IMG/VR virus record: IMGVR_UViG_3300011008_000012
Location: 55,579-119,578 of that record
Reading direction: 5' to 3' (one strand)
Origin: a virus
Taxonomy: Duplodnaviria > Caudoviricetes
Length of the DNA stretch: 64,000 nucleotides
Part shown: positions 2,029 through 40,975 of the stretch, piece after piece
Layout of the letters: each line of letters starts with the position of its first letter
How positions within the stretch are numbered: position 1 is the stretch's first letter
Translations under genes and position numbers: made by a program
Notes under the pieces: model-generated
Told to the model about the DNA's origin: nothing
Database searches by the model: none
What the model saw: only the letters and a program-made list of their open reading frames with translations

Positions 2029-2632
2029 GTACATAGTTACAGACTACGGGTGTTGCCGAAACACGCATGTATACGGCCTCGATGAGAGCATCCGGTTTGC
2101 AAAATATCCAATGTCAACCGACACGTCATGCCTGAATGCAGAGCTGACGGATGGAATCCGAGGTCTTGCGCAGAGTGAGAAGGGGGAGGGACATGACCAG
2201 TGGCTGACGGGCGTTACCGTCGAGTTTGACCTTGAGTTTACGATTAAAGCATGGACGGAGGAAGAACGGTACACGTTTATGAACTTCGTCAGCAGTCAAT
2301 CGACAATGCACCGCATAGCTAGATTCGACTACGACGAATCATATATCAAATACACAGATCCACGTTGCATCGAGATCGTGAAAGAACTTGCAGATCGATA
2401 TAATGCTACAAGAGATCCAGAGGATTACCTCCGGCTTCTGTACAGCAATCCATGCGGCATGAAGCTCCGCGCAGGCATCGTGACAAACTACCGTGCTCTC
2501 AAAACGGTCTATGCGCAGCGTAAAAACCATCGGCTTCCCGAGTGGAGAGAGTTTTGCAGATGGGTCGAAACGCTCCCGATGGCAACCGAGCTCATCCTTC
2601 CAAGAGAAGAGAAGGAGGAAGAGGTGGCGTGA
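2021..2632 (+). CDS. divergent ThyX-like (flavin-dependent thymidylate synthase fold) phage protein
   Basis: ERY..MNFVSSQSTMH and NYRALKT.YAQR..HRLPEW segments, in a nucleotide-metabolism context. The canonical RHRx7S motif is not intact. Confidence 0.55.
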   Translation: MSEYIVTDYGCCRNTHVYGLDESIRFAKYPMSTDTSCLNAELTDGIRGLAQSEKGEGHDQWLTGVTVEFDLEFTIKAWTEEERYTFMNFVSSQSTMHRIARFDYDESYIKYTDPRCIEIVKELADRYNATRDPEDYLRLLYSNPCGMKLRAGIVTNYRALKTVYAQRKNHRLPEWREFCRWVETLPMATELILPREEKEEEVA

Positions 2633-3195
2633 AGGTAATCTGCATATCTGGGAAAGCGCAGCATGGAAAAGATACTACGGCGTCGATCATGGCTAGTACG
2701 CTGCGTGAAAGAGGTTTTCGTGTGCTGGTTGCGCATTATGCCGACCTGCTGAAATACATCTGTAAGATGTTTTTTGGTTGGGACGGCAAGAAGGATGAGG
2801 ATGGCCGTCAGCTTCTGCAATATGTTGGCACAGACGTTATTCGTGCGCAGGATCAAAACTTCTGGGTTCGATTCATTGGAAGCGTTCTCAATCTTTTCCC
2901 TGACGAATGGGATTTTGTTCTGATTCCTGATACAAGGTTCCCGAACGAGATCAGTGCTATGAATGGATATGGGTTTGATGTGTCGCTCCTTCGTGTAATT
3001 CGTGATGGGTTTGATAACGGTCTCACCGAAAAGCAAAAGAATCATCCATCCGAGACTTCGCTTGACGGTGTGAAAGCAGACTATACGATCCATAACAACG
3101 GGCCAATGTCCGATCTGATTGTGGATGTACATAACCTGATCGATAGTATGATCGAGCCAATGCCGCTTATAGATGGATACGAGGTGACAGATTGA
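2629..3195 (+). CDS. deoxynucleoside monophosphate kinase
   Basis: N-terminal P-loop ISGKAQHGKDT, RQLLQYVGTD and DTRFPNE. GTG start overlaps the upstream stop. Confidence 0.85.
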   Translation: MKVICISGKAQHGKDTTASIMASTLRERGFRVLVAHYADLLKYICKMFFGWDGKKDEDGRQLLQYVGTDVIRAQDQNFWVRFIGSVLNLFPDEWDFVLIPDTRFPNEISAMNGYGFDVSLLRVIRDGFDNGLTEKQKNHPSETSLDGVKADYTIHNNGPMSDLIVDVHNLIDSMIEPMPLIDGYEVTD

Positions 3196-3743
3196 CAATA
3201 CTTGTAGACATGGATGAGGTATTAGATCAGCTATTACAGGCATGGATACCATATCTCAACAAAAAGTACGATCGGAATGTTGATCCAGAAGACGTTACTG
3301 GTTGGTGGATCACAGATTTTTATCCCGGTCTTACGCACAAACAAATATATGGCGTCTTAAAAGACGGGGAATTGTGGGCGAATGTCAAACCGGTTCCTGG
3401 AGCAAGTGAAGTGCTCCAGAAGCTAATGGCAGACGGCCACGATATTTTTATCGTCACGAACTCCAACTATAAGACCGTGGAAGTGAAGATGGATACCGTG
3501 CTGTTCAAATACTATCCATTCCTTTCATGGGACAAGGTAATCCTGGCGACAAAGAAACAAATGATCCGTGGCGATGTTTTGATCGACGACGGAATCCACA
3601 ATTTAGAGGGCGGCGATTATCACAAAATCCTGATGGACGCGCCGCACAACCGCGGGTATGACGCGGCTATACACGGTATGCACCGGGTTTTTAACTGGGA
3701 TGACATCTACCGGGTGATTCAGCACATAGATCAAAGGAATTGA
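3192..3743 (+). CDS. 5'(3')-deoxyribonucleotidase (HAD, NT5C family)
   Basis: DMDEVL motif I and DVLIDD motif. Confidence 0.85.
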   Translation: MTILVDMDEVLDQLLQAWIPYLNKKYDRNVDPEDVTGWWITDFYPGLTHKQIYGVLKDGELWANVKPVPGASEVLQKLMADGHDIFIVTNSNYKTVEVKMDTVLFKYYPFLSWDKVILATKKQMIRGDVLIDDGIHNLEGGDYHKILMDAPHNRGYDAAIHGMHRVFNWDDIYRVIQHIDQRN

Positions 3744-31512: not shown

Positions 31513-34500
31513 CTATATTTTTATGCTATACTTATTAAGAGAGCGAGAATCCACCATCTTACCAAGACTCATGGACGCGATAAGCTTTTCAAACTTCGAG
31601 TCGCTTTGCATCTGACGAAGCATGTCGTTATAGTCCTGAACATGGTCGATCTCGATTGTAACGTTAATGTCTCCAATACTGGAGCTGCGATTGGCGATGT
31701 TCGGGCGATGAATACCCAGAGGCATATCCCCACGCAGCGAACCGATGAGCCCACTGGATAAAGCGGACAACACAGATGCAGCCGAAGCACTACCAGAGAT
31801 AGCGCCCTTACCGCGCAAGAGATCCAACAGGGCGGAGAAGTTTTTCGTGTCCTCTGCATCAAGGATACCCTCAGGCTTATCGGGCGAACCGTCCACCCAG
31901 GCAAGGCCGGTGTAATCTGCCATACCACCTGTCTTGTAACCTTTGAACTTCTTCCGCATTTTGCTGTAAGAATAATTGGCCGCTTTAAGGCTGTTCTTGG
32001 TCGCATACGCGGCCACAGCTTTTGCGCCCTTACCGACGATAGCCTGGATACCATTATCCGTACCGAAAACCTCTTCCAGAAGTTTCTTCCTGGTAGCACC
32101 AGAACCCCAGCCTTGACCACCGTTCCAGATCGCATAGGCGACGCCGTATTTGATCTTTTCAGTCAACTTGGGCGTGGTCGTTTTGTTTGTCTTATCGGTC
32201 TGATTCTTATCTTTGGTTGTATCTTTGCTTGAAGTCGTGGAGGTGGAAGTGGTTGACGGAGCCGACTCGGTGGACGTCAGCTGCCCGATGGTAGCAGCCG
32301 CCTCGTTGTTGCTAGCCGTAACCATCTCCTGAACATTGGCACTAATATCGTTGATAGCCTTTTCTGTCGTGGTTTCCTCGCCTGAATTGTATTCGGTTAC
32401 TGCCAGCTTGTTAAGATTCTCTGCGGCAGTCTTCCAAATAGCGCCAAGGGTACCATCCGCTGTGGATATCTTGTAGCCATCTTCTTCAGCGGCCGACTTC
32501 AGCGTGTTCCAGATACCACCGGAATTCTCGTTGACGGCGGTGATCACGTCTCTGATCAGTGCGTCTGTTTCATCCAACCGTTTGGTGAGAGTCGCCTCAT
32601 ACTCCGTATACAGATCGTCAAGCAGCTGTTTTTGATCCTTGATATACTGCTCGTACTGCGTTTCCTGAAGTTTCTCCTGCGCCTCTGCAAGACTTGTATT
32701 GAGCTTTTGCAGACGAGCCCGGTTCTCCTCTGACGTATCACCGGAGTAAGCGGAGAGCTGCTTCTGGATTTGTGCTACGTTCTTCGTTTGCTCGGCAATC
32801 TTTTTCTGATAATCATATAGGGACTTGGCAGAATCTAGACTTTCCTTATAGGTGTCTATCAGGTCTTTCAGCGAGGAGAGTTCGAGATTGATACCCTCTT
32901 CCACAAGGGAGACGATGGCGTCTTTCTCTCCCTCAGCCGCGAGAATCGACTTCTGCTGTAAGTCGATCAGCTCTTCGCGGCGCTCAATCAGGTCCGTATT
33001 ATTCGGGTCTTTTGCTATCTGCTTTGTGAGTTTTGCAATCTGCGTGGCGTAATCGTCCGCCTGCCGCATATACACGTCGTAGTTTGTGCTGTGCAAGCCC
33101 ATAGTAGCCATACCAGCGTCTGTGAGCTGTCCATTTTCTGTAAACAGCTTGGAGTGGCTGAGCAGGTCAACCATGAAGCTAGCCTCAGAGGAAATGCGGG
33201 AGATACGCTCTTCCAGATAGTCGAAGTGGCTCCAGTCGTTCTCGCGAGCTTGCTTGTTGAACTCCGCCATATTTGTCTCGGCTTGCTGAATTGACTCGGC
33301 AACGGCATTGATATTCTGTTGCATAGCGTACCAAGCTTCAGAGTACTTCTTGATCTCACCGCTTGCCACCGCCGCGTCTCTCGCCGCCGTCAGCTGCTGG
33401 AACTCTTGGTTGAGCACGTTGAGATTCTTTTTCTCCTGCTTCGCCATCTTCGTATAGTATTTCGACGAGACGAGTCTGCCGCGTGCCTCCGCATTGTCGA
33501 TAGCGCCGTCAAGAGTGTTGGTCACATGCTCAAAAAGACTAAGACGATCCTCAAAATTGGTTTGAATATTATTGAAGTTATCCTGATACAATGAGCCAAG
33601 CTTCTCGTGCAGATCGACAGCGGCATCCGAGCACTCTTTGCTCTTCTCATACCACTGCTGATACTCCTGAATAAGTTCTGCGGTTGCATCATCGTACTCA
33701 TTGATATCAATTGTTCCTTCACGAACACGCTTCTTCAGGTCGTCTGATAGCCCAACAGACTCCGCCTGCTTCATATAACGAGCGGCGGCCTTCTCGTTCA
33801 GGGCGAGCATGTTGTTGACTTCGCCGATTTCTTTGTTTGTGTTCTTCAGTCGCGTAGAGAGAGTTTGGAAGGAACTACTCGCCTTTGTCGCCAGCTTTGA
33901 GATCTTCTTATCCAACCGATCGATAGCGATCTCGATCCAGTCAATGACCTCCTTGGCGTCGTCGGCCGCCTTGGTGCTGCTATTGCCGCCGCTGGTAGTG
34001 GCGGCCCCGCTGTTGCCGGAATAACTTGATGTGTAGCTGCCGAGATTGGCGCTGGAGGTCAAGGCGGGCAGAGTCGCCTGGCTTGTAGTGGGCGTTGATC
34101 TGCCGCCGGAGTCCGTCATCAGCGTATTGACGGTGCCAATCGGGTATGCTCGTCCATGTCCGGCATGACCCGTCCGGAGAAGACCTTCCGTTTGCGCGTG
34201 GTTGAAAATAATATCGCCCTTGTCAATGCCGATGAACTCAGCTCCATTATTACCTACTGTGCGCCATTCGCCGCTTGAAGCATCGACGTATAGTTCTCTG
34301 CCTTTTTCGCCTACCAGAACACGGCCGCCTTGTTTTGCCCCCATCGTGCCGGAGGCCATGGCGTTGCCATTGACTTGCGCTTCACGATGTACTGTGTTAA
34401 TATAGGTTGTGACCTGCCTGTTTTCGAGAGCATTTAAGCGGCTATTTAATACGTCGAGCTGCCCCATGCCGGAAACATTAACATCGACGTCTACTTTCTT

Positions 34501-36984
34501 CCCTTCGGTCTCTTCGATGTTTTGTTGCAGTGCGTCGGTGGCTTCGTTGGCCTCTTCTGTACTGACTTGCATATCAGTCTGGAGATCATCCGGAACAACT
34601 TCTGCCCAATTAATGTCAGCGACCTGACCATACTCCTTGATCATCGCCGCAAGCTCTTCACGGCTCATATGCATAACCTGGGCGAAGGCATCAAATGCGT
34701 CGTTGTCGGCTATCGACAGGGTCACCTCATCGCCAACACGGTCAATTTCTACGCCGACCTCAGAAAGCTCATCCTTGAGGGCTACGGCGCTATCGATCCA
34801 ATTCGATAACCCCTTTGTGCCATACCGGTCATCTGTCGCTCCGTCATACCATGCCTCACGTTCGGCGATCAGTGCCTCCAGCTGTCTGGCGGCACTCTCC
34901 AAGCCTTGTGAGAAGTCTATGAACTGCGTAAGCCCCATCTTCTCAGCGATATCCCACGTTTTGGCTTCGGAGCCGATAATCCCCTTACCGAGGAGTTCTT
35001 CCATTTCCTCAACTGCTTCGGCGTAGGTGATGTATTCGTTATTGGTATCGGCGCTCAGAGATTTCTTTAGCTCGTCGGCGGCCTCTTCTACGCCACGCAT
35101 AGAGTCGGCAAGCATACCATAGTGTTCTGCAAGCTCGTCAACCGGGTCGACGGGTAGGTTACGGGCGGCATTGATGACACTCTTCAACGCGGTCGTCTGC
35201 TCGTCGGTCAGGTCGGCTGTTTTAGCAAAATCTTCCAAAGACCTGATGAAGTCATCCGGCGATTCACGCAATAGCTTCTTTAAGCCTTCTTCAAGATTTC
35301 CGAAGCCTTCTGCTTCCGCGTCAATATATTCCAGAAGCTCAGGGAACTGCTGAACTAGCTCAAAGACACCCTCCGGCGTTATGTCGCCATTTCGCAGATC
35401 AACCAAAGCGGTAGTCAATGTATCGATGTCCGAGGTAAGGGTGCCAAGCCCTTCAAGTGTTTCTGAGAGCCTAAGGTTGTCATACTCATGCCGAATGGCT
35501 GCGACGCTTTCTGCGACGCCCATATTGGCAAAATCGAGGTTTGATGCTGCCTCTGCGACGAGATCGAGTTCGTCGTCGCCTATCTCTCTGATCCACGACA
35601 AAAGCTCGACTCCGAACTGCTCCTTTAAGGTCGCAAGCGCTTCAGACCCGTATCTGCCAGCTGTTTTGGCCGCGCCATTAGAACCGGCAAATATGTCCCA
35701 AATATCGTCCAGCGCGTCCGTGAGCTCTTCGGATAACCCAACGAATTTATTTAGTTCTTTTTCCGCAGGCTTGGCCTCGTCGGCAAGAGCCTTAAACCCG
35801 TCCGCGATTTGTCCTATAGTCCATCCGGCAAAACTAAAGCCGTTTCCAGAGAAAAGATCGTAAAGCTGTTTAACGTCTTCGGGAGACATATCGCTGACAA
35901 ACTCGTCCCATGCGGTGCGCCACTCGTCAAGCGCCTTTGCCGTCTGACGCTCGGTCATCCCCTCGGTATCGATACCGCCGAGGACGCTTTCCCACATCTG
36001 CCGTATAGCCTCATCGACGTTGATTATACCGATGTTGCTATTGATCGTATTGGCAACAGCTTCCGCAAAGTCCTCGCCGGTCTCCATGCCGGCTTCAACA
36101 GCGGCCAGCTTCAGAACACTTTCGGGAAATAGTTCAGATACATCTTCGGCGCTGATACCGTTGTTCCCGGTTGCCTTCTCTTTGAGCGCATCGATAAACG
36201 GCTGATTCATTGACCCAGATATGAAGTCGTCGACAGCCTTCTGGGCATCACGAGCAACCTCTTCTTCGGTCTTGGTGTAATCGATAATCTCTTTAATCTG
36301 GTCAAGCCAATCTGCGTTGGCCTCTGGAGCCAAAGAGAGAGTTGAGTAGATGCTGAGCAGCGTATCAAGATCCTCAGCAAGAAGCTCGCGATACTCATCG
36401 GCACCATCGTTGACCATCTCCTGCTCGAACTGGATCTTTTCCAACAGATTCATATTCCGCAGGACCGACGTTCCTTCGCCTCGTGCAAGGCTATAATCTA
36501 TCCCAACATCAACAACTTGAGTTTTTGACAATAGTTTTCGCGCGTCGTCTATTGCCTCTTGTTGTTCAAGAGCTGCTATCTGTCGTTTTAGCTCTAACTG
36601 TGATTCAAGGTCTGAGTTCGCCGTTTCAAGCCGACTAAGTTCCTCTTGCTCAACGAGTGTGAGTCCGCCCTTGGCATTCAACTCGTCGATTCGCGTCTGT
36701 GTGGTGTTTAACTCAGAATTTAGACTCTCTATATCAGACTGTGCACTGTCATAAGCAGCCCTGGATTTCTCCGCTGCTTTCTTGGCCTCATTAAAGGATA
36801 CTATAAGCGCATCAACAATTTTTACAACGCCTACTATCAGGGATGCTGCGGCGACAAAGCCAAATATTCCCGTCGATAGCGCACCCATTCCTTCTGCTGC
36901 GAGGTTAGCCGCTGTGGCAAGATCTTTAATGGATGTAACTCCAGTTGCAAGCCCACTTGTTGTAAATAGAGCGCTTAATGTTTG
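31513..36984 (-). CDS. tape measure protein, exon 2
   Basis: More than 1800 helical codons with LVGEKGRE...GAEF and YKTGG...AWVDG motifs. No SD at its TTG; in phase with exon 1. The 5' boundary is inferred. Confidence 0.85.
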   Translation of the reverse strand, partial: QTLSALFTTSGLATGVTSIKDLATAANLAAEGMGALSTGIFGFVAAASLIVGVVKIVDALIVSFNEAKKAAEKSRAAYDSAQSDIESLNSELNTTQTRIDELNAKGGLTLVEQEELSRLETANSDLESQLELKRQIAALEQQEAIDDARKLLSKTQVVDVGIDYSLARGEGTSVLRNMNLLEKIQFEQEMVNDGADEYRELLAEDLDTLLSIYSTLSLAPEANADWLDQIKEIIDYTKTEEEVARDAQKAVDDFISGSMNQPFIDALKEKATGNNGISAEDVSELFPESVLKLAAVEAGMETGEDFAEAVANTINSNIGIINVDEAIRQMWESVLGGIDTEGMTERQTAKALDEWRTAWDEFVSDMSPEDVKQLYDLFSGNGFSFAGWTIGQIADGFKALADEAKPAEKELNKFVGLSEELTDALDDIWDIFAGSNGAAKTAGRYGSEALATLKEQFGVELLSWIREIGDDELDLVAEAASNLDFANMGVAESVAAIRHEYDNLRLSETLEGLGTLTSDIDTLTTALVDLRNGDITPEGVFELVQQFPELLEYIDAEAEGFGNLEEGLKKLLRESPDDFIRSLEDFAKTADLTDEQTTALKSVINAARNLPVDPVDELAEHYGMLADSMRGVEEAADELKKSLSADTNNEYITYAEAVEEMEELLGKGIIGSEAKTWDIAEKMGLTQFIDFSQGLESAARQLEALIAEREAWYDGATDDRYGTKGLSNWIDSAVALKDELSEVGVEIDRVGDEVTLSIADNDAFDAFAQVMHMSREELAAMIKEYGQVADINWAEVVPDDLQTDMQVSTEEANEATDALQQNIEETEGKKVDVDVNVSGMGQLDVLNSRLNALENRQVTTYINTVHREAQVNGNAMASGTMGAKQGGRVLVGEKGRELYVDASSGEWRTVGNNGAEFIGIDKGDIIFNHAQTEGLLRTGHAGHGRAYPIGTVNTLMTDSGGRSTPTTSQATLPALTSSANLGSYTSSYSGNSGAATTSGGNSSTKAADDAKEVIDWIEIAIDRLDKKISKLATKASSSFQTLSTRLKNTNKEIGEVNNMLALNEKAAARYMKQAESVGLSDDLKKRVREGTIDINEYDDATAELIQEYQQWYEKSKECSDAAVDLHEKLGSLYQDNFNNIQTNFEDRLSLFEHVTNTLDGAIDNAEARGRLVSSKYYTKMAKQEKKNLNVLNQEFQQLTAARDAAVASGEIKKYSEAWYAMQQNINAVAESIQQAETNMAEFNKQARENDWSHFDYLEERISRISSEASFMVDLLSHSKLFTENGQLTDAGMATMGLHSTNYDVYMRQADDYATQIAKLTKQIAKDPNNTDLIERREELIDLQQKSILAAEGEKDAIVSLVEEGINLELSSLKDLIDTYKESLDSAKSLYDYQKKIAEQTKNVAQIQKQLSAYSGDTSEENRARLQKLNTSLAEAQEKLQETQYEQYIKDQKQLLDDLYTEYEATLTKRLDETDALIRDVITAVNENSGGIWNTLKSAAEEDGYKISTADGTLGAIWKTAAENLNKLAVTEYNSGEETTTEKAINDISANVQEMVTASNNEAAATIGQLTSTESAPSTTSTSTTSSKDTTKDKNQTDKTNKTTTPKLTEKIKYGVAYAIWNGGQGWGSGATRKKLLEEVFGTDNGIQAIVGKGAKAVAAYATKNSLKAANYSYSKMRKKFKGYKTGGMADYTGLAWVDGSPDKPEGILDAEDTKNFSALLDLLRGKGAISGSASAASVLSALSSGLIGSLRGDMPLGIHRPNIANRSSSIGDINVTIEIDHVQDYNDMLRQMQSDSKFEKLIASMSLGKMVDSRSLNKYSIKI

Positions 36985-37048
36985 CTTGAGTATCAAATAA
37001 TTTGTCGATATATATTTATGGATACATATCAATTTGGAGGGTGATTAT

Positions 37049-37615
37049 ATGGACCAAATTACAGACCAACTTCTTAAAATCAAGTCGCTTTGGGATAATG
37101 GCGTGTTATCTGAAAGTGAATTCAACGAGTTGAAACAAAGGATTATTTCAGAAGATTACCATTCGACAGACAATGAATCTGAAACAAAGGAAAAATTGTA
37201 TACAGTTAGCCTTGTAGCGTATACAAGGGAACAAAAAATTCCGACAATTCAAACAATCCGCGAACTAACCGGATTGGGATTGGCCGATGCAAAAGATCTG
37301 ATCGAAACCTTGCCGCACGTTATTCGCGATAATGTACCAATGTCTGAATGTATTGATATCAAAAACAGTTTTGCGACCAATAAAGCAGTGGTTGTTATAG
37401 AAGAATCCCGGGTCACGTCAGAATCACATCCAACGGGAGCATATTTCGGCAATACAGTTCTTAGTGAAAATCCATCTTGCCCCTACTGCCACTCACCCGA
37501 CGTAAAGAAAATCACCATGACTAAGAAGCTCGCTAAAGGTTGGGTGTTCGGTCTGGCCGCTGCGTCAACGCTCACGAAGGAATGGCATTGTAATAACTGT
37601 AAAAGCGATTTTTAA
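37049..37615 (+). CDS. SHOCT + ribosomal L7/L12 C-terminal-like + zinc-ribbon protein (cargo, antisense to the tape measure gene)
   Basis: LLKIKSLWDNGVLSESEFNELKQRII; KIPTIQTIRELTGLGLADAKDLIE; CPYC...CNNC. GGAGG SD. Confidence 0.8.
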   Translation: MDQITDQLLKIKSLWDNGVLSESEFNELKQRIISEDYHSTDNESETKEKLYTVSLVAYTREQKIPTIQTIRELTGLGLADAKDLIETLPHVIRDNVPMSECIDIKNSFATNKAVVVIEESRVTSESHPTGAYFGNTVLSENPSCPYCHSPDVKKITMTKKLAKGWVFGLAAASTLTKEWHCNNCKSDF

Positions 37616-37685
37616 TTCTTATTATAGGAGATACTACGAATCATGAATAATAAGAAATGTATTATTGTTACTTCGCGGACCGGTT

Positions 37686-37940
37686 CTAAAACTCTTTGTG
37701 GGCATTGTTCTCATTGTCAGGAATTCGTTGAGCTAACGGACATTGATAACATACCGAAAGAGCTCTTTGTATAAGTCCCGGGATATCGGCCTTTGGGTCG
37801 ATAGTATGGTCGTCGTCATAATAGAACCTAAACGCCTTGTGAACTCTATCGCAGTAAAATTGCATCTGAGTATACCCGTAATAATCGCCGCCTCCCCAAT
37901 GGGTGATTTCCGGCGTAGCGAATTTTTCATAACAATTCAT
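37686..37940 (-). CDS. hypothetical protein (cargo)
   Basis: 84 aa; GAAAGGA SD. Confidence 0.55.
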   Translation of the reverse strand: MNCYEKFATPEITHWGGGDYYGYTQMQFYCDRVHKAFRFYYDDDHTIDPKADIPGLIQRALSVCYQCPLAQRIPDNENNAHKEF

Positions 37941-38203
37941 AAAACCATCCTTTCATTCGTATACCCGCTCAGGTATTAAACGTGAATTATTGAACGTTAG
38001 TATACCGGAACGGGTATAATATGTATTATATTGTTTTTATCCCATCCATAAAACCAGTCAAGGGATTGTGACCGCATTGTTATTCAAACTCTATACTGCT
38101 TCTGAAATTGGACTTTCATGCCGGTCTCTCACCGGCGAGCATAGAACCGATACAGTCTAACAAAGAAAGCTATATCGGCAATTCCGACTGTCTCTCACAC
38201 TAT

Positions 38204-38232
38204 TTGACACATAATATGTATGGTGGTATTAT
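38204..38232 (+). promoter_or_regulatory. sigma70/sigmaA promoter for micropeptide A
   Basis: TTGACA-17 bp-TATTAT with an extended TG. Confidence 0.8.
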
Positions 38233-38312
38233 GACCTTGCGCATTTGACTCTCTGTCGGCTTAGTACGTTTGACAACGGGACGGAACCGCCGTCCAGAGA
38301 GGAGTGATTAGC

Positions 38313-38405
38313 GTGAAGAAGGTCATCAAGACCACGGTTAAGGTTGAAACGAAAGTGAAAACCAAAGCCGTCTCAAGGGCGCAAGTCCGAGTTCGACGCG
38401 GTTGA
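38313..38405 (+). CDS. basic micropeptide A (MKKVIKTTVKVETKVKTKAVSRAQVRVRRG)
   Basis: AGGAGTG SD and GTG start; own promoter upstream and terminator at 38415-38447. Confidence 0.7.
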   Translation: MKKVIKTTVKVETKVKTKAVSRAQVRVRRG

Positions 38406-38544
38406 TCCGTGCGCCGGGACGTGTATTGGCGCGTCCCGTTATTTTTTATGTGTAAATAGTGAACCTCCTTACAGTCTGTGAGCCTTCCCGTTCATCACAA
38501 ATTCCAACGTGATGCAGTCCCCAGACGAAAAAGATTTGTATGTC

Positions 38545-38573
38545 TTGAAATAAAACTACGTCTGCTGTATTAT
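38545..38573 (+). promoter_or_regulatory. sigma70/sigmaA promoter for micropeptide B
   Basis: TTGAAA-17 bp-TATTAT. Confidence 0.72.
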
Positions 38574-38651
38574 TATTAACAGGCGCAACGAAATCCGGCG
38601 AAGAGAGATGTTGACGGCTTGACTCTCTAAGTCAGGAAAGTAGGTGATATA

Positions 38652-38729
38652 ATGGCGCAGATCAAAGTGAAAACCGAGATCAAGGTGAAAATCCGCACCA
38701 CGGTGCGGGTTGCCACCCGCTGCCGTTGA
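38652..38729 (+). CDS. basic micropeptide B (MAQIKVKTEIKVKIRTTVRVATRCR)
   Basis: AGGTGA SD and ATG start; terminator GGGAGTCAG/CTGGCTCCC + T-rich tract at 38740-38774. Confidence 0.7.
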   Translation: MAQIKVKTEIKVKIRTTVRVATRCR

Positions 38730-39010
38730 TCGGCGCTTAGGGAGTCAGTCACCGCTGGCTCCCGTCTTTATTTCATATACAAAATTTTTCGATAGGGGAG
38801 AGGGGCTTGGTTGCGTGATTGCCCATTGTATACGACCAGTAGCGTTATTGTTTAGCCTAGGCCAACCATCCACTTCTTTCCGCCTTTCGGCTCCTCTCGC
38901 GCTTGTCCGTTAGGGCTACGCTGTGGCAAGATGGTATTAGGGGTTCCCCGCAGTTTGAAGGTTTACGCAACGATGGGTTCACACCCATCGTGGGCAAATT
39001 CATTTGAACT

Positions 39011-40975
39011 ACCAAAATTGTGAATCAAAACGCCGATACCCAACCCGGCAATTGCTGTACCGAGTGGACCGAGCGCGGATGTAATATGTCCAATAGCTCC
39101 GGCAATGGGTTCTAGGAGTTCCAATACGTTGGTGCCAATGTCAACGATGCTATTTACAAAGCCGGAATCGATGGCTGTCCGGCTCAGCTCCTGGAGCGCG
39201 GCCTTGAATGTGTTGATATGCGCCGTCATGCTGTCCAGGAAGACGTCATACGCGCCCTCAAGTGCGCCGGCGCTGTCGGCCATAGCTTCCATGGCTCCGG
39301 TCGCTTCACCGAACTGCCCCATGAGGCTGCTGAACACGTCTTGCTGTCGCGTACCGGCCAAAGCAGTGGTAATGGCGGCTTTAACATCTGTGCTGAGTGT
39401 GCTCCACTTGTCCGCCAGATCACTTAAAACCTCGAACGGATTACGAAGTGCACCAGTTGCCTCCTGTAACTGAACTCCTCCGCTTGTAAGCGCGTCGATC
39501 AGTTCTTGGTACTTCGCCTCGTTCCATACCTCGCCAGTTTCTTCAATCTCTGTTTTGACATTTCTGAGTCTGGCAATGATCGTTCGCAGACCGGTGGAAG
39601 ATTTGGAAATATTCTGGACCGTTGTATTTGCGGCTGTCAGCATGGCTATCGACTGATCGATAGTCATTCCGGATTGAGCCATCATCGAGGAGGCATTGTT
39701 CATGCCCTCCGCAATCTGGGATACTGAAATGGGGAAGTTGTTACCAACTTTCACCATTTTATCCATGATAGACTCAATGTCTTCAACGCCCTTCCCATAA
39801 GCCTTGACGATAGCGGTTACAGCGTCAGATGCAGCCGACGGATCAATGTCGCCGACGTTTTGCAGCATAGCAGTAAATTTTGCCAGGTCATGGGATTCTT
39901 CCAGACTATAGCCAAGTCTTGAGTAAACCGTCGCCATGTTGACCAGATCGGTTATGGAGGCGCTCATATCCTTTGCCGTCTGAGCCATCGTGCTGCCAAA
40001 GCGGCTCATCGTCTCATTGTCCGCACTAGTTACGATCTGAAGCTGTGTATATGCGTCGTTCAGCTCGATGGCCGTACTGACCATCTCTTTCATTTGCGCG
40101 ATCGTAGATTGTATGATACGGAACGTGCTGAACGTCATGGCGACATATTGCGTCAGGCCAGCCTTCAGATTTCCAAAGAAAGCGGCAAGGCTCGATCCGG
40201 CGTTGTTTACGTTACCAGATATGTTGGTCACCTCGCTCCGTAGATGGGCGAGTTTAGCGCGGGCCTCATCCGCGGGCATTCCTTTAAGGTCTCCGGCAAG
40301 CCGTTCAAGGGCGGCTATGAGATTATTAACTTGCGCAACAGTTGACGGATCGGCGGCGCCTTTGCCGAGAGCAATCTTGTCTTGCAGTCCATGCAGCGTA
40401 TTTAACATGGTGCTGACCTGATTCAGCGCCTGATAGTACTCCGTCGTTCCCTCGGCGAGCATCCTAAACTCGTTCTTGGAACCGGCCTGTGTGAAGGTCA
40501 TCTTCCCGTTCGCCATGTTGTTCTTTAGTGAATCGAACTGATCCCTAAAATCCTTCATAGCGAGGTTCCCGCTTTCGATCTCGCTAAGGAGACCGGAGAA
40601 CGCGGTCTTCGCCCGGCCGAGTCCGGAGGTGTAGGCGTTTACAGAATCGCCCGCAAGGCCCTTCATCCTCTGCATCTCAAGTTCTACGTTGACAAGCTGA
40701 TTCATCACCTGTGTCGCTTCTTTGATACCGGCAGTTTGCGTTTTTATGTTTACGCTGCCGCCAGACACAGTGGCCTTCTTAACGGCGTCAAGGCTCTCAA
40801 TGGTGGACTTGATGTCATTGCGCAGCTGTTTGATCATTTTATCAGCGCCTTCAACGTCCAGCTCGACTTTGACTTTGAACGGCTTCAAACCGCCGATCAT
40901 AGTTTTGAGTTGACCTTCTATTGCGGCTTTACTTTCCTGATGGACACCAAACAGAAGTTCTACATCACCGGCCAT
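39011..40975 (-). CDS. tape measure protein, exon 1 (TP901-type core domain)
   Basis: TMP core motifs (Y.RLGYS, D....VGNNF, G..LRTI.ARL, LAG.RQ). Unspliced, the ORF reads 15 codons into the intron and stops at 38963. Confidence 0.9.

Follow-up and report, generated by a model that had tools for sequence, protein, structure and literature searches.

In the T4 nrdD (sunY) intron, the ribozyme core reportedly lies at the 5′ side, an ORF separates it from a remote 3′ splice site, and proximal cryptic 3′ sites are present; the work of Michel et al. in Genes Dev (1990, 1992) is said to have established that a long-range pairing with the 3′ terminal domain selects the correct site. A related layout is known from the IStrons CdISt1 of Clostridioides difficile and BcISt1 of Bacillus cereus, in which the cargo follows P9.2 within an inverted-repeat stem, and ORF-less variants of which retain the stem-loop alone (PMC4227781). 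Group I introns in tape measure genes have already been published as well, namely TMP-IVS1/2/3 in Bacillus cereus-group prophages and the intron of Lactobacillus phage JCL1032, which are in-frame and mostly devoid of an intact homing endonuclease (PMC2504315).

The locus described here lies in the window, by which we mean a 64,000-nt stretch that forms the last 64 kb of a complete virus record of 119,578 bp with direct terminal repeats at its ends. Its tape measure gene probably contains a member of an intron family that resembles the IStrons and T4 sunY in having a remote 3′ splice site and a long-range pairing around kilobases of passengers, by which accessory genes would be kept inside an essential phage gene. 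Shared with sunY are the 5′ core, the cargo before the remote 3′ site, a putative cryptic proximal site and the predicted long-range pairing, whereas the cargo, unlike the sense-strand homing endonuclease of sunY, is non-nuclease and partly antisense. [quoted passage not shown] Unlike in IStrons, the cargo comprises an antisense zinc-ribbon gene (phrog_2546) and variable genes with no insertion sequence and no IS200/IS605- or IS607-type transposase; P7.1 and P7.2 of the IA2 IStron ribozymes are absent, P7 running directly into UAA and the 3′ strand of P3; and the intron resides at a fixed position within a tape measure gene of a phage. With the TMP-IVS and JCL1032 introns it shares the in-frame position in a tape measure gene, but those are set apart by their description as compact IA1/IA2 introns with no passenger genes.

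A tape measure gene in two parts

On the minus strand of the window, an upstream ORF of 670 aa (40975-38963) contains a PhageMin_Tail domain (PF10145, E 1.6e-27), and a downstream open frame of 1843 codons extends from 37044 to 31513. The 670-aa ORF is matched by 1109 longer homologues (2000-3000 aa), many of which match the downstream ORF too, so that the two ORFs, about 2 kb apart, are best read as halves of one tape measure gene. Exon 1 (39011..40975; 655 codons, the last three being AAU UUU GGU, NFG) is delimited by the ORF listing and the PF10145 match, and exon 2 (31513..36993; 1826 codons plus the stop) by homology with C-terminal portions of tape measure proteins from uninterrupted genes. 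In the reading that we prefer, to which we assign a probability of about 0.6, the intervening 2017 nt (36994..39010, minus strand) constitute one group I-type intron with G36994 as its terminal G, and the gene would probably encode a single protein of 2481 aa (655+1826) with the junction NFG|ILKQTL. Since the tape measure protein sets tail length, the correct exon junction matters for annotation. All the sequence elements named in an earlier note on this DNA are present on the minus strand, and its arithmetic holds both for a short product of 660 aa (655+5) and for a full-length product of 2478 aa (655+1823), the latter calculated with G36985, 9 nt inside exon 2 as drawn here, as the terminal G.

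Related introns

Six related introns were compared, among them those of the window and of the loci L039, L040, L045, L050 and L052. The conserved P5′/P4′/P6 motif retrieved 34 viral loci; the 22-mer of J6/7-P7-J7/3-P3′ retrieved four more tape-measure introns (L040, L045, L050 and L052) together with many nuclear SSU rDNA introns; and the exon-2 N-terminus led to the further split genes L037, L038 and L039. The L039 intron and the window core share 75-90% identity. The L052 intron measures 423 nt, is cargo-less and sits at a different place in the gene, inside PF10145. The phage record collection contained no close relative apart from a 90-nt match to an SPN3US-type RNA polymerase intron, a protein pattern retrieved none from IMG/VR, and a stricter DNA pattern likewise gave no hit.

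Positions 38897-38804 of the window, an extension of P5, are 78% identical to an unannotated stretch (L001, 3001-3092) that sits between the halves of the virion RNA polymerase beta gene in SPN3US-type jumbo phages (Salmonella phage SaP7, Proteus phage 7); this stretch is presumably an intron. The tape measure gene of L050 carries a second, upstream group I intron (2269-3600; RF00028, 45.4 bits, E 1e-8), which contains a LAGLIDADG-type ORF.

Ribozyme core

The core elements, from P1 to P9.1, occupy the 5′ ~900 nt of the predicted intron, and ~1.1 kb of cargo lies inside its terminal hairpin. A P1 with a U-G wobble and an internal guide, a P3-P8/P4-P6 core and a frame-restoring terminal G all point to a group I-type intron. 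Against Rfam Intron_gpI (RF00028), the window gives no more than a partial match over P4-P6, at 12.4 bits, and the L050 tape-measure intron reaches 35.8 bits (E 7e-6), both below the gathering threshold of 50; we attribute these low scores to the large inserts in P6 and P8, which break the model.

In P1 (38993..39013), GGU|AG (39013-39009) pairs with the guide UUGCC (38997-38993), leaving the U-G wobble at the 5′ splice site. L040 carries a compensatory change, GAU|AG with UUGUC, and the combination of GGU with UUGCC is kept in the other five relatives, which places the 5′ splice site after U39011, in phase 0, as the earlier note had assumed. Another P1, in which AAUUU before the splice site pairs with GAAUU (phase 2), seemed preferable in the window and L039; it was rejected, as L045 has AAACU there with an unchanged guide, and no in-frame G exists for phase 2.

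The P2 hairpin (38971..38990, CGAUGGGU-GUGA-ACCCAUCG) covaries, with CUAUGG/CCAUAG in L039 and the entire helix swapped in L050 (ACAGCC/GGCUGU). P3 is formed by AACCUUC (38963-38957) and GGAGGUU (38468-38462) and is replaced by AACUCUC/GGGAGUU in L039 and by AAGUCCC/GGGAUUU in L052. P4-P6 starts from 38952 and accommodates a ~300-nt insert in P6, and P8 contains an insert of ~270 nt. The segment 38462..38488 comprises J6/7, the 5′ strand of P7 (CAGACUG, 38478-38472), J7/3 (UAA) and the 3′ strand of P3; the 3′ strand of P7, CAGUCGG (38184..38190), completes the predicted guanosine-binding helix, in whose 5′ strand one A is bulged, and is conserved in all six relatives. Compensatory changes back four helices, P1, P2, P3 and the P9.1-like hairpin (GCCGGU/ACCGGC, GCUGGU/ACCAGC, GUCGGU/ACCGAC), and the helix that closes P9 covaries across the six introns as well. 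No second ribozyme was found in an Rfam search of 38101-36995 at E up to 10, which leaves a tandem-intron or twintron reading without support.

The 22-nt motif of J6/7-P7-J7/3-P3′ is common to four tape-measure introns and nuclear rDNA group I introns. The copy in the window (38488-38467) does not differ at any position from its counterpart in group I introns that lie towards the 3′ end of nuclear SSU rRNA genes in eukaryotes (among L041-L055), and one nuclear SSU rDNA intron with the identical motif scores 73 bits on RF00028.

The P9 domain (38102..38183) is closed by AAUUG (38183-38179) with CAAUU (38110-38106), encloses two internal hairpins and ends in UCAG at G38102. With the flanking bases included, GAAUUG (38184-38179) can pair with CAAUUUC (38110-38104), which is followed by A and then by G38102. 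The helix recurs in the five relatives, the AUUG:CAAU of the window being GUUG:CAAC in L050 and a G-U variant in L040. In all six introns, the closing helix is followed by N-N-G and then by AAG-YAG-YAY, which in the window opens the conserved 11-nt linker AAGCAGUAUAG (38091..38101). The pairing proposed earlier as a local P9.0 that leads to G38102 is thus a real and covarying helix, near which the 3′ domain of the ribozyme ends; as the mark of a functional splice site it is not well supported, for the reasons given below.

Predicted long-range closure of the cargo loop

The earlier note had GAGUUUGAAUAA (38091-38080) pairing with UUAUUUGAUACUC (37000-36988) in a 12-bp stem with one bulge, followed in frame by AAG|CAA ACA UUA. 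This pairing is possible, at -5.8 kcal, and RNAduplex assigns -18.2 kcal to the two 60-nt segments that contain its arms, compared with -15.0 +/- 3.3 for shuffled sequences, 18% of which are as good (p about 0.18). The exact register is not conserved in the relatives, where the pairing is shifted, and its 3′ arm (36988..37000) straddles the inferred splice site, with UUAUUUG in the intron and AUACUC in the exon. What survives of the proposal is the closure itself, by which ~1.1 kb of cargo would be looped out and a remote 3′ site would restore the frame.

Two other helices keep their place among the relatives. In helix 1, the 5′ arm AGUUUG (38085..38090) faces CAAAUU (37004-36999); its equivalents in all six introns start 11-12 nt past the proximal G and end 5-7 nt short of the splice G (combined p 0.004). 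In the window, helix 1 is weak (-1.4 kcal, p 0.33 alone), and the 12-bp register is the more stable (-5.8 kcal). In helix 2, UUUAUGGAU (38044..38052) faces AUCCAUAAA (37023-37015), with equivalents in L040, L045 and L050 that include an A-U to C-G swap and stop 19-22 nt ahead of the splice G (combined p 0.056). The closure is strongest in L039, where 48-nt arms, 2341 nt apart, are 88% complementary (-39 kcal, compared with -10 +/- 3 for shuffles), and L052 has a plain hairpin at the place where its relatives have the long-range closure. An inverted-repeat stem after P9, the arrangement of IStrons, is therefore found in a conserved position in all six introns, strong in L039 and weak in the window taken alone. 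These comparisons support long-range closure as a feature of the intron family, with a homologous register that is shifted from the 12-bp stem.

The probable distal 3′ splice site

Agreement of reading frame is weak evidence for any one distal site, because phase 0 is shared by four of the five Gs that occur within 60 nt upstream of the exon-2 homology, and the proximal site just reads into a stop. A better guide is L052, in which the linker is followed by a local hairpin and then by UUGUUUG|AUACUUAUG|AAUC, with two in-frame G residues 9 nt apart. In 57 of 57 uninterrupted homologues of L052, some of them 85-98% identical to it in the flanks, exactly three residues (ILM, IIM, LIM or IVM) stand between AFKG and NLQQVKG, and this spacing sets the splice site of L052 at the first G (UUUG|AUACU). 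A home-made HMM applied to the two L052 junctions hardly separated them (96.2 vs 95.5 bits), and the direct comparison with these homologues was relied on in its place. A cargo-less relative and intron-less alleles can in this way fix the splice site of a large cargo intron, with no recourse to RNA data.

The intron end of the window, UUAUUUG|AUACUCAAG (UUAUUUG|AUACUC), is homologous to that of L052 (UUGUUUG|AUACUU), and it also matches CUAUUUG|AAAA in L040, AAUUCG|AAAA in L045 and UUACUUG|AAAG in L050. The L039 intron ends in AACUG|AAUU, the sole phase-0 G there; the L039 site UCAG|CAACA was ruled out, as it is out of frame. At the protein level, the exon-2 N-terminus of the window, ILKQTLSALFTTSG, aligns with that of L039, NFKDLLSATFTLSS, without gaps and with 7/14 identities, and those of L040 and L050 are identical at 10/27 positions, again gapless. 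From the homology of the intron 3′ end and of the exon-2 N-termini, we infer G36994 as the terminal G of the window intron. This G had been listed earlier as a further phase-0 candidate, and it is the one that the related introns favour.

In the mechanism that we propose, the ribozyme core would fold first, and the correct 3′ site would become available only once transcription has passed the ~1.1 kb of cargo and the terminal hairpin is closed. Helices 38090-38085:37004-36999 and 38052-38044:37023-37015 would then bring UUAUUUG, ending in G36994, to the guanosine site in P7. A two-base P9.0 is possible between AA (38183-82) and the UU before G36994, and P10 would be minimal; in the window it is almost absent, as the guide can pair with the first exon base A alone. 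Exon joining would yield NFG|ILKQTL and the 2481-aa protein.

Alternative readings of the junction

The same architecture could end at G36985, the site proposed earlier for the full-length protein (NFG|QTL, 2478 aa), in which case the 12-bp stem would close the loop 3 nt before the splice site. No local duplex is more stable than the stem 38091-38080:37000-36988 (-5.8 to -7.8 kcal), and P0001, one distant uninterrupted homologue that is about 31% identical here, aligns without a gap (SNLP-ATLSQ vs HNFG-QTLSA). The 9 nt that G36985 would transfer to the intron, AUACUCAAG, also resemble AUACUUAUG of L052, but the latter are exonic there, as judged by the three residues present in every homologue. 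Moreover, neither L040 nor L039 offers an in-frame G where this second site would be, the exon-2 identities to L039 would drop from 7/14 to 3/14, and the first exon base would become C, where all five relatives have A. We therefore regard G36985 as an unlikely terminal G, and prefer G36994.

The remaining alternatives concern whether the distal G is used alone, or at all. Joining NFG to 38101, as the earlier note suggested, reads AAG CAG UAU AGA GUU UGA (KQYRV-stop) and would give the 660-aa form; if G38102 and the distal G were both used, short and full-length proteins would be made in a set ratio, perhaps aided by transcripts that stop at a terminator-like hairpin and lack the distal site. 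G38102 does lie where a compact group I intron would end, right after a covarying helix, the G with AAG-YAG is invariant in the six introns, and a weak terminator-like hairpin (38074-38055) is found 28 nt downstream. Yet the motif is equally kept in cargo-less L052, where proximal joining produces K-stop and cuts the protein mid-domain in PF10145, and this indicates that conservation of G|AAGYAGYAY is a structural property of the RNA and not evidence for a short isoform. The tails after proximal joining are not conserved (K-stop in L040, L050 and L052, KQYV-stop in L039, KQYRV-stop in the window, and 29 aa in L045), coding constraint past the proximal site is seen in no relative, and a 670-aa product is already encoded by the unspliced RNA according to the ORF listing. 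Controlled use of both sites is accordingly highly improbable, and the earlier suggestion that alternative 3′ site choice sets the ratio of short to long protein finds no support; re-splicing and ribosomal bypass, offered in the same place, are not needed, and nothing points to either. It is equally hard to see the gene as giving no productive splicing and two polypeptides, one of 670 aa and one of about 1827 aa that starts from TTG 36996. Gene callers do split the gene in this manner, in the window record and in L037-L039, but TTG 36996 is preceded by no ribosome-binding site, compensatory changes maintain the ribozyme helices, thousands of homologues are single proteins, and the reading frame is maintained across the junction in every relative, so that this outcome is very unlikely.

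With G36994 as the preferred terminal G, G38102 would be a conserved internal residue of the ribozyme 3′ domain and at most a cryptic site to avoid, and a structural role would be the sole account of why the proximal G and the linker are so strictly conserved. We give very little credence to the idea that G38102 and AAG-YAG form a built-in decoy or checkpoint, by which transcripts that pause or stop short of the distal arm would be spliced at the proximal G to give the 660-aa N-terminal fragment, and full-length transcripts would form the long-range helices and be spliced at G36994; if it were true, the short-to-long protein ratio would be governed by transcription across the cargo.

Within the linker, AGUAU (38097-38093) is complementary to the first five bases of exon 2, AUACU (36993-36989). 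The same complementarity is present in L052, whose intron lies elsewhere in the gene, and is absent in the other four relatives; it may reflect target-site choice.

Cargo genes and small elements in the inserts

The cargo of the window holds an ORF on one strand and a gene on the other. An 84-aa ORF (37686..37940) on the minus strand, that of the host gene, has no family match, and a 188-aa gene on the plus strand (37049..37615), preceded by a GGAGGG ribosome-binding site, combines a SHOCT domain, an L7/L12 C-terminal-like domain and a C-terminal zinc ribbon. Pfam and PHROG scans of the cargo ORFs revealed no transposase, and a nuclease domain was not found in the antisense genes. An antisense gene stands directly upstream of exon 2 in every split tape-measure locus examined (L037 5421-5864, L038 3619-4137, L039 5304-5828, L050 4769-5416), including L037 and L038, whose introns seem to belong to another lineage. 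The antisense proteins of the window, L039 and L050 match phrog_2546, a family of unknown function, and six antisense genes share a homologous C-terminal zinc-ribbon module, the window protein being missed by BLAST and similar by eye.

A gene for a ToxN toxin (PF13958; 4300-4977) is part of the L039 cargo and is preceded by ~3 tandem repeats of ~36 nt that contain GTTTAATGC, an arrangement suggestive of a ToxIN-like type III toxin-antitoxin system.

At the start of the cargo, a conserved pseudoknot-like element is present on the minus strand (38073-38039 in the window) and also in L040, L045 and L050. It is composed of helix a (GGUCA:UGACU) and helix b (AUCCC:GGGAU), with compensatory changes in the relatives such as GCUCU:AGAGC in L040 and UCGUU:AACGA in L050. 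An Rfam search of this leader gave no match, whether to a pistol or hatchet ribozyme or to a riboswitch. Helix a and the subsequent U-run were also scored as a weak terminator.

The inserts in P8 (38204-38438) and P6 (38545-38763) each hold a plus-strand unit, antisense to the host gene, that encodes a short lysine/valine-rich peptide. These units have near-consensus promoters, TTGACA-17-TATTAT and TTGAAA-17-TATTAT, and a strong terminator-like hairpin each, and the P8 insert of L040 is similar to that of the window.
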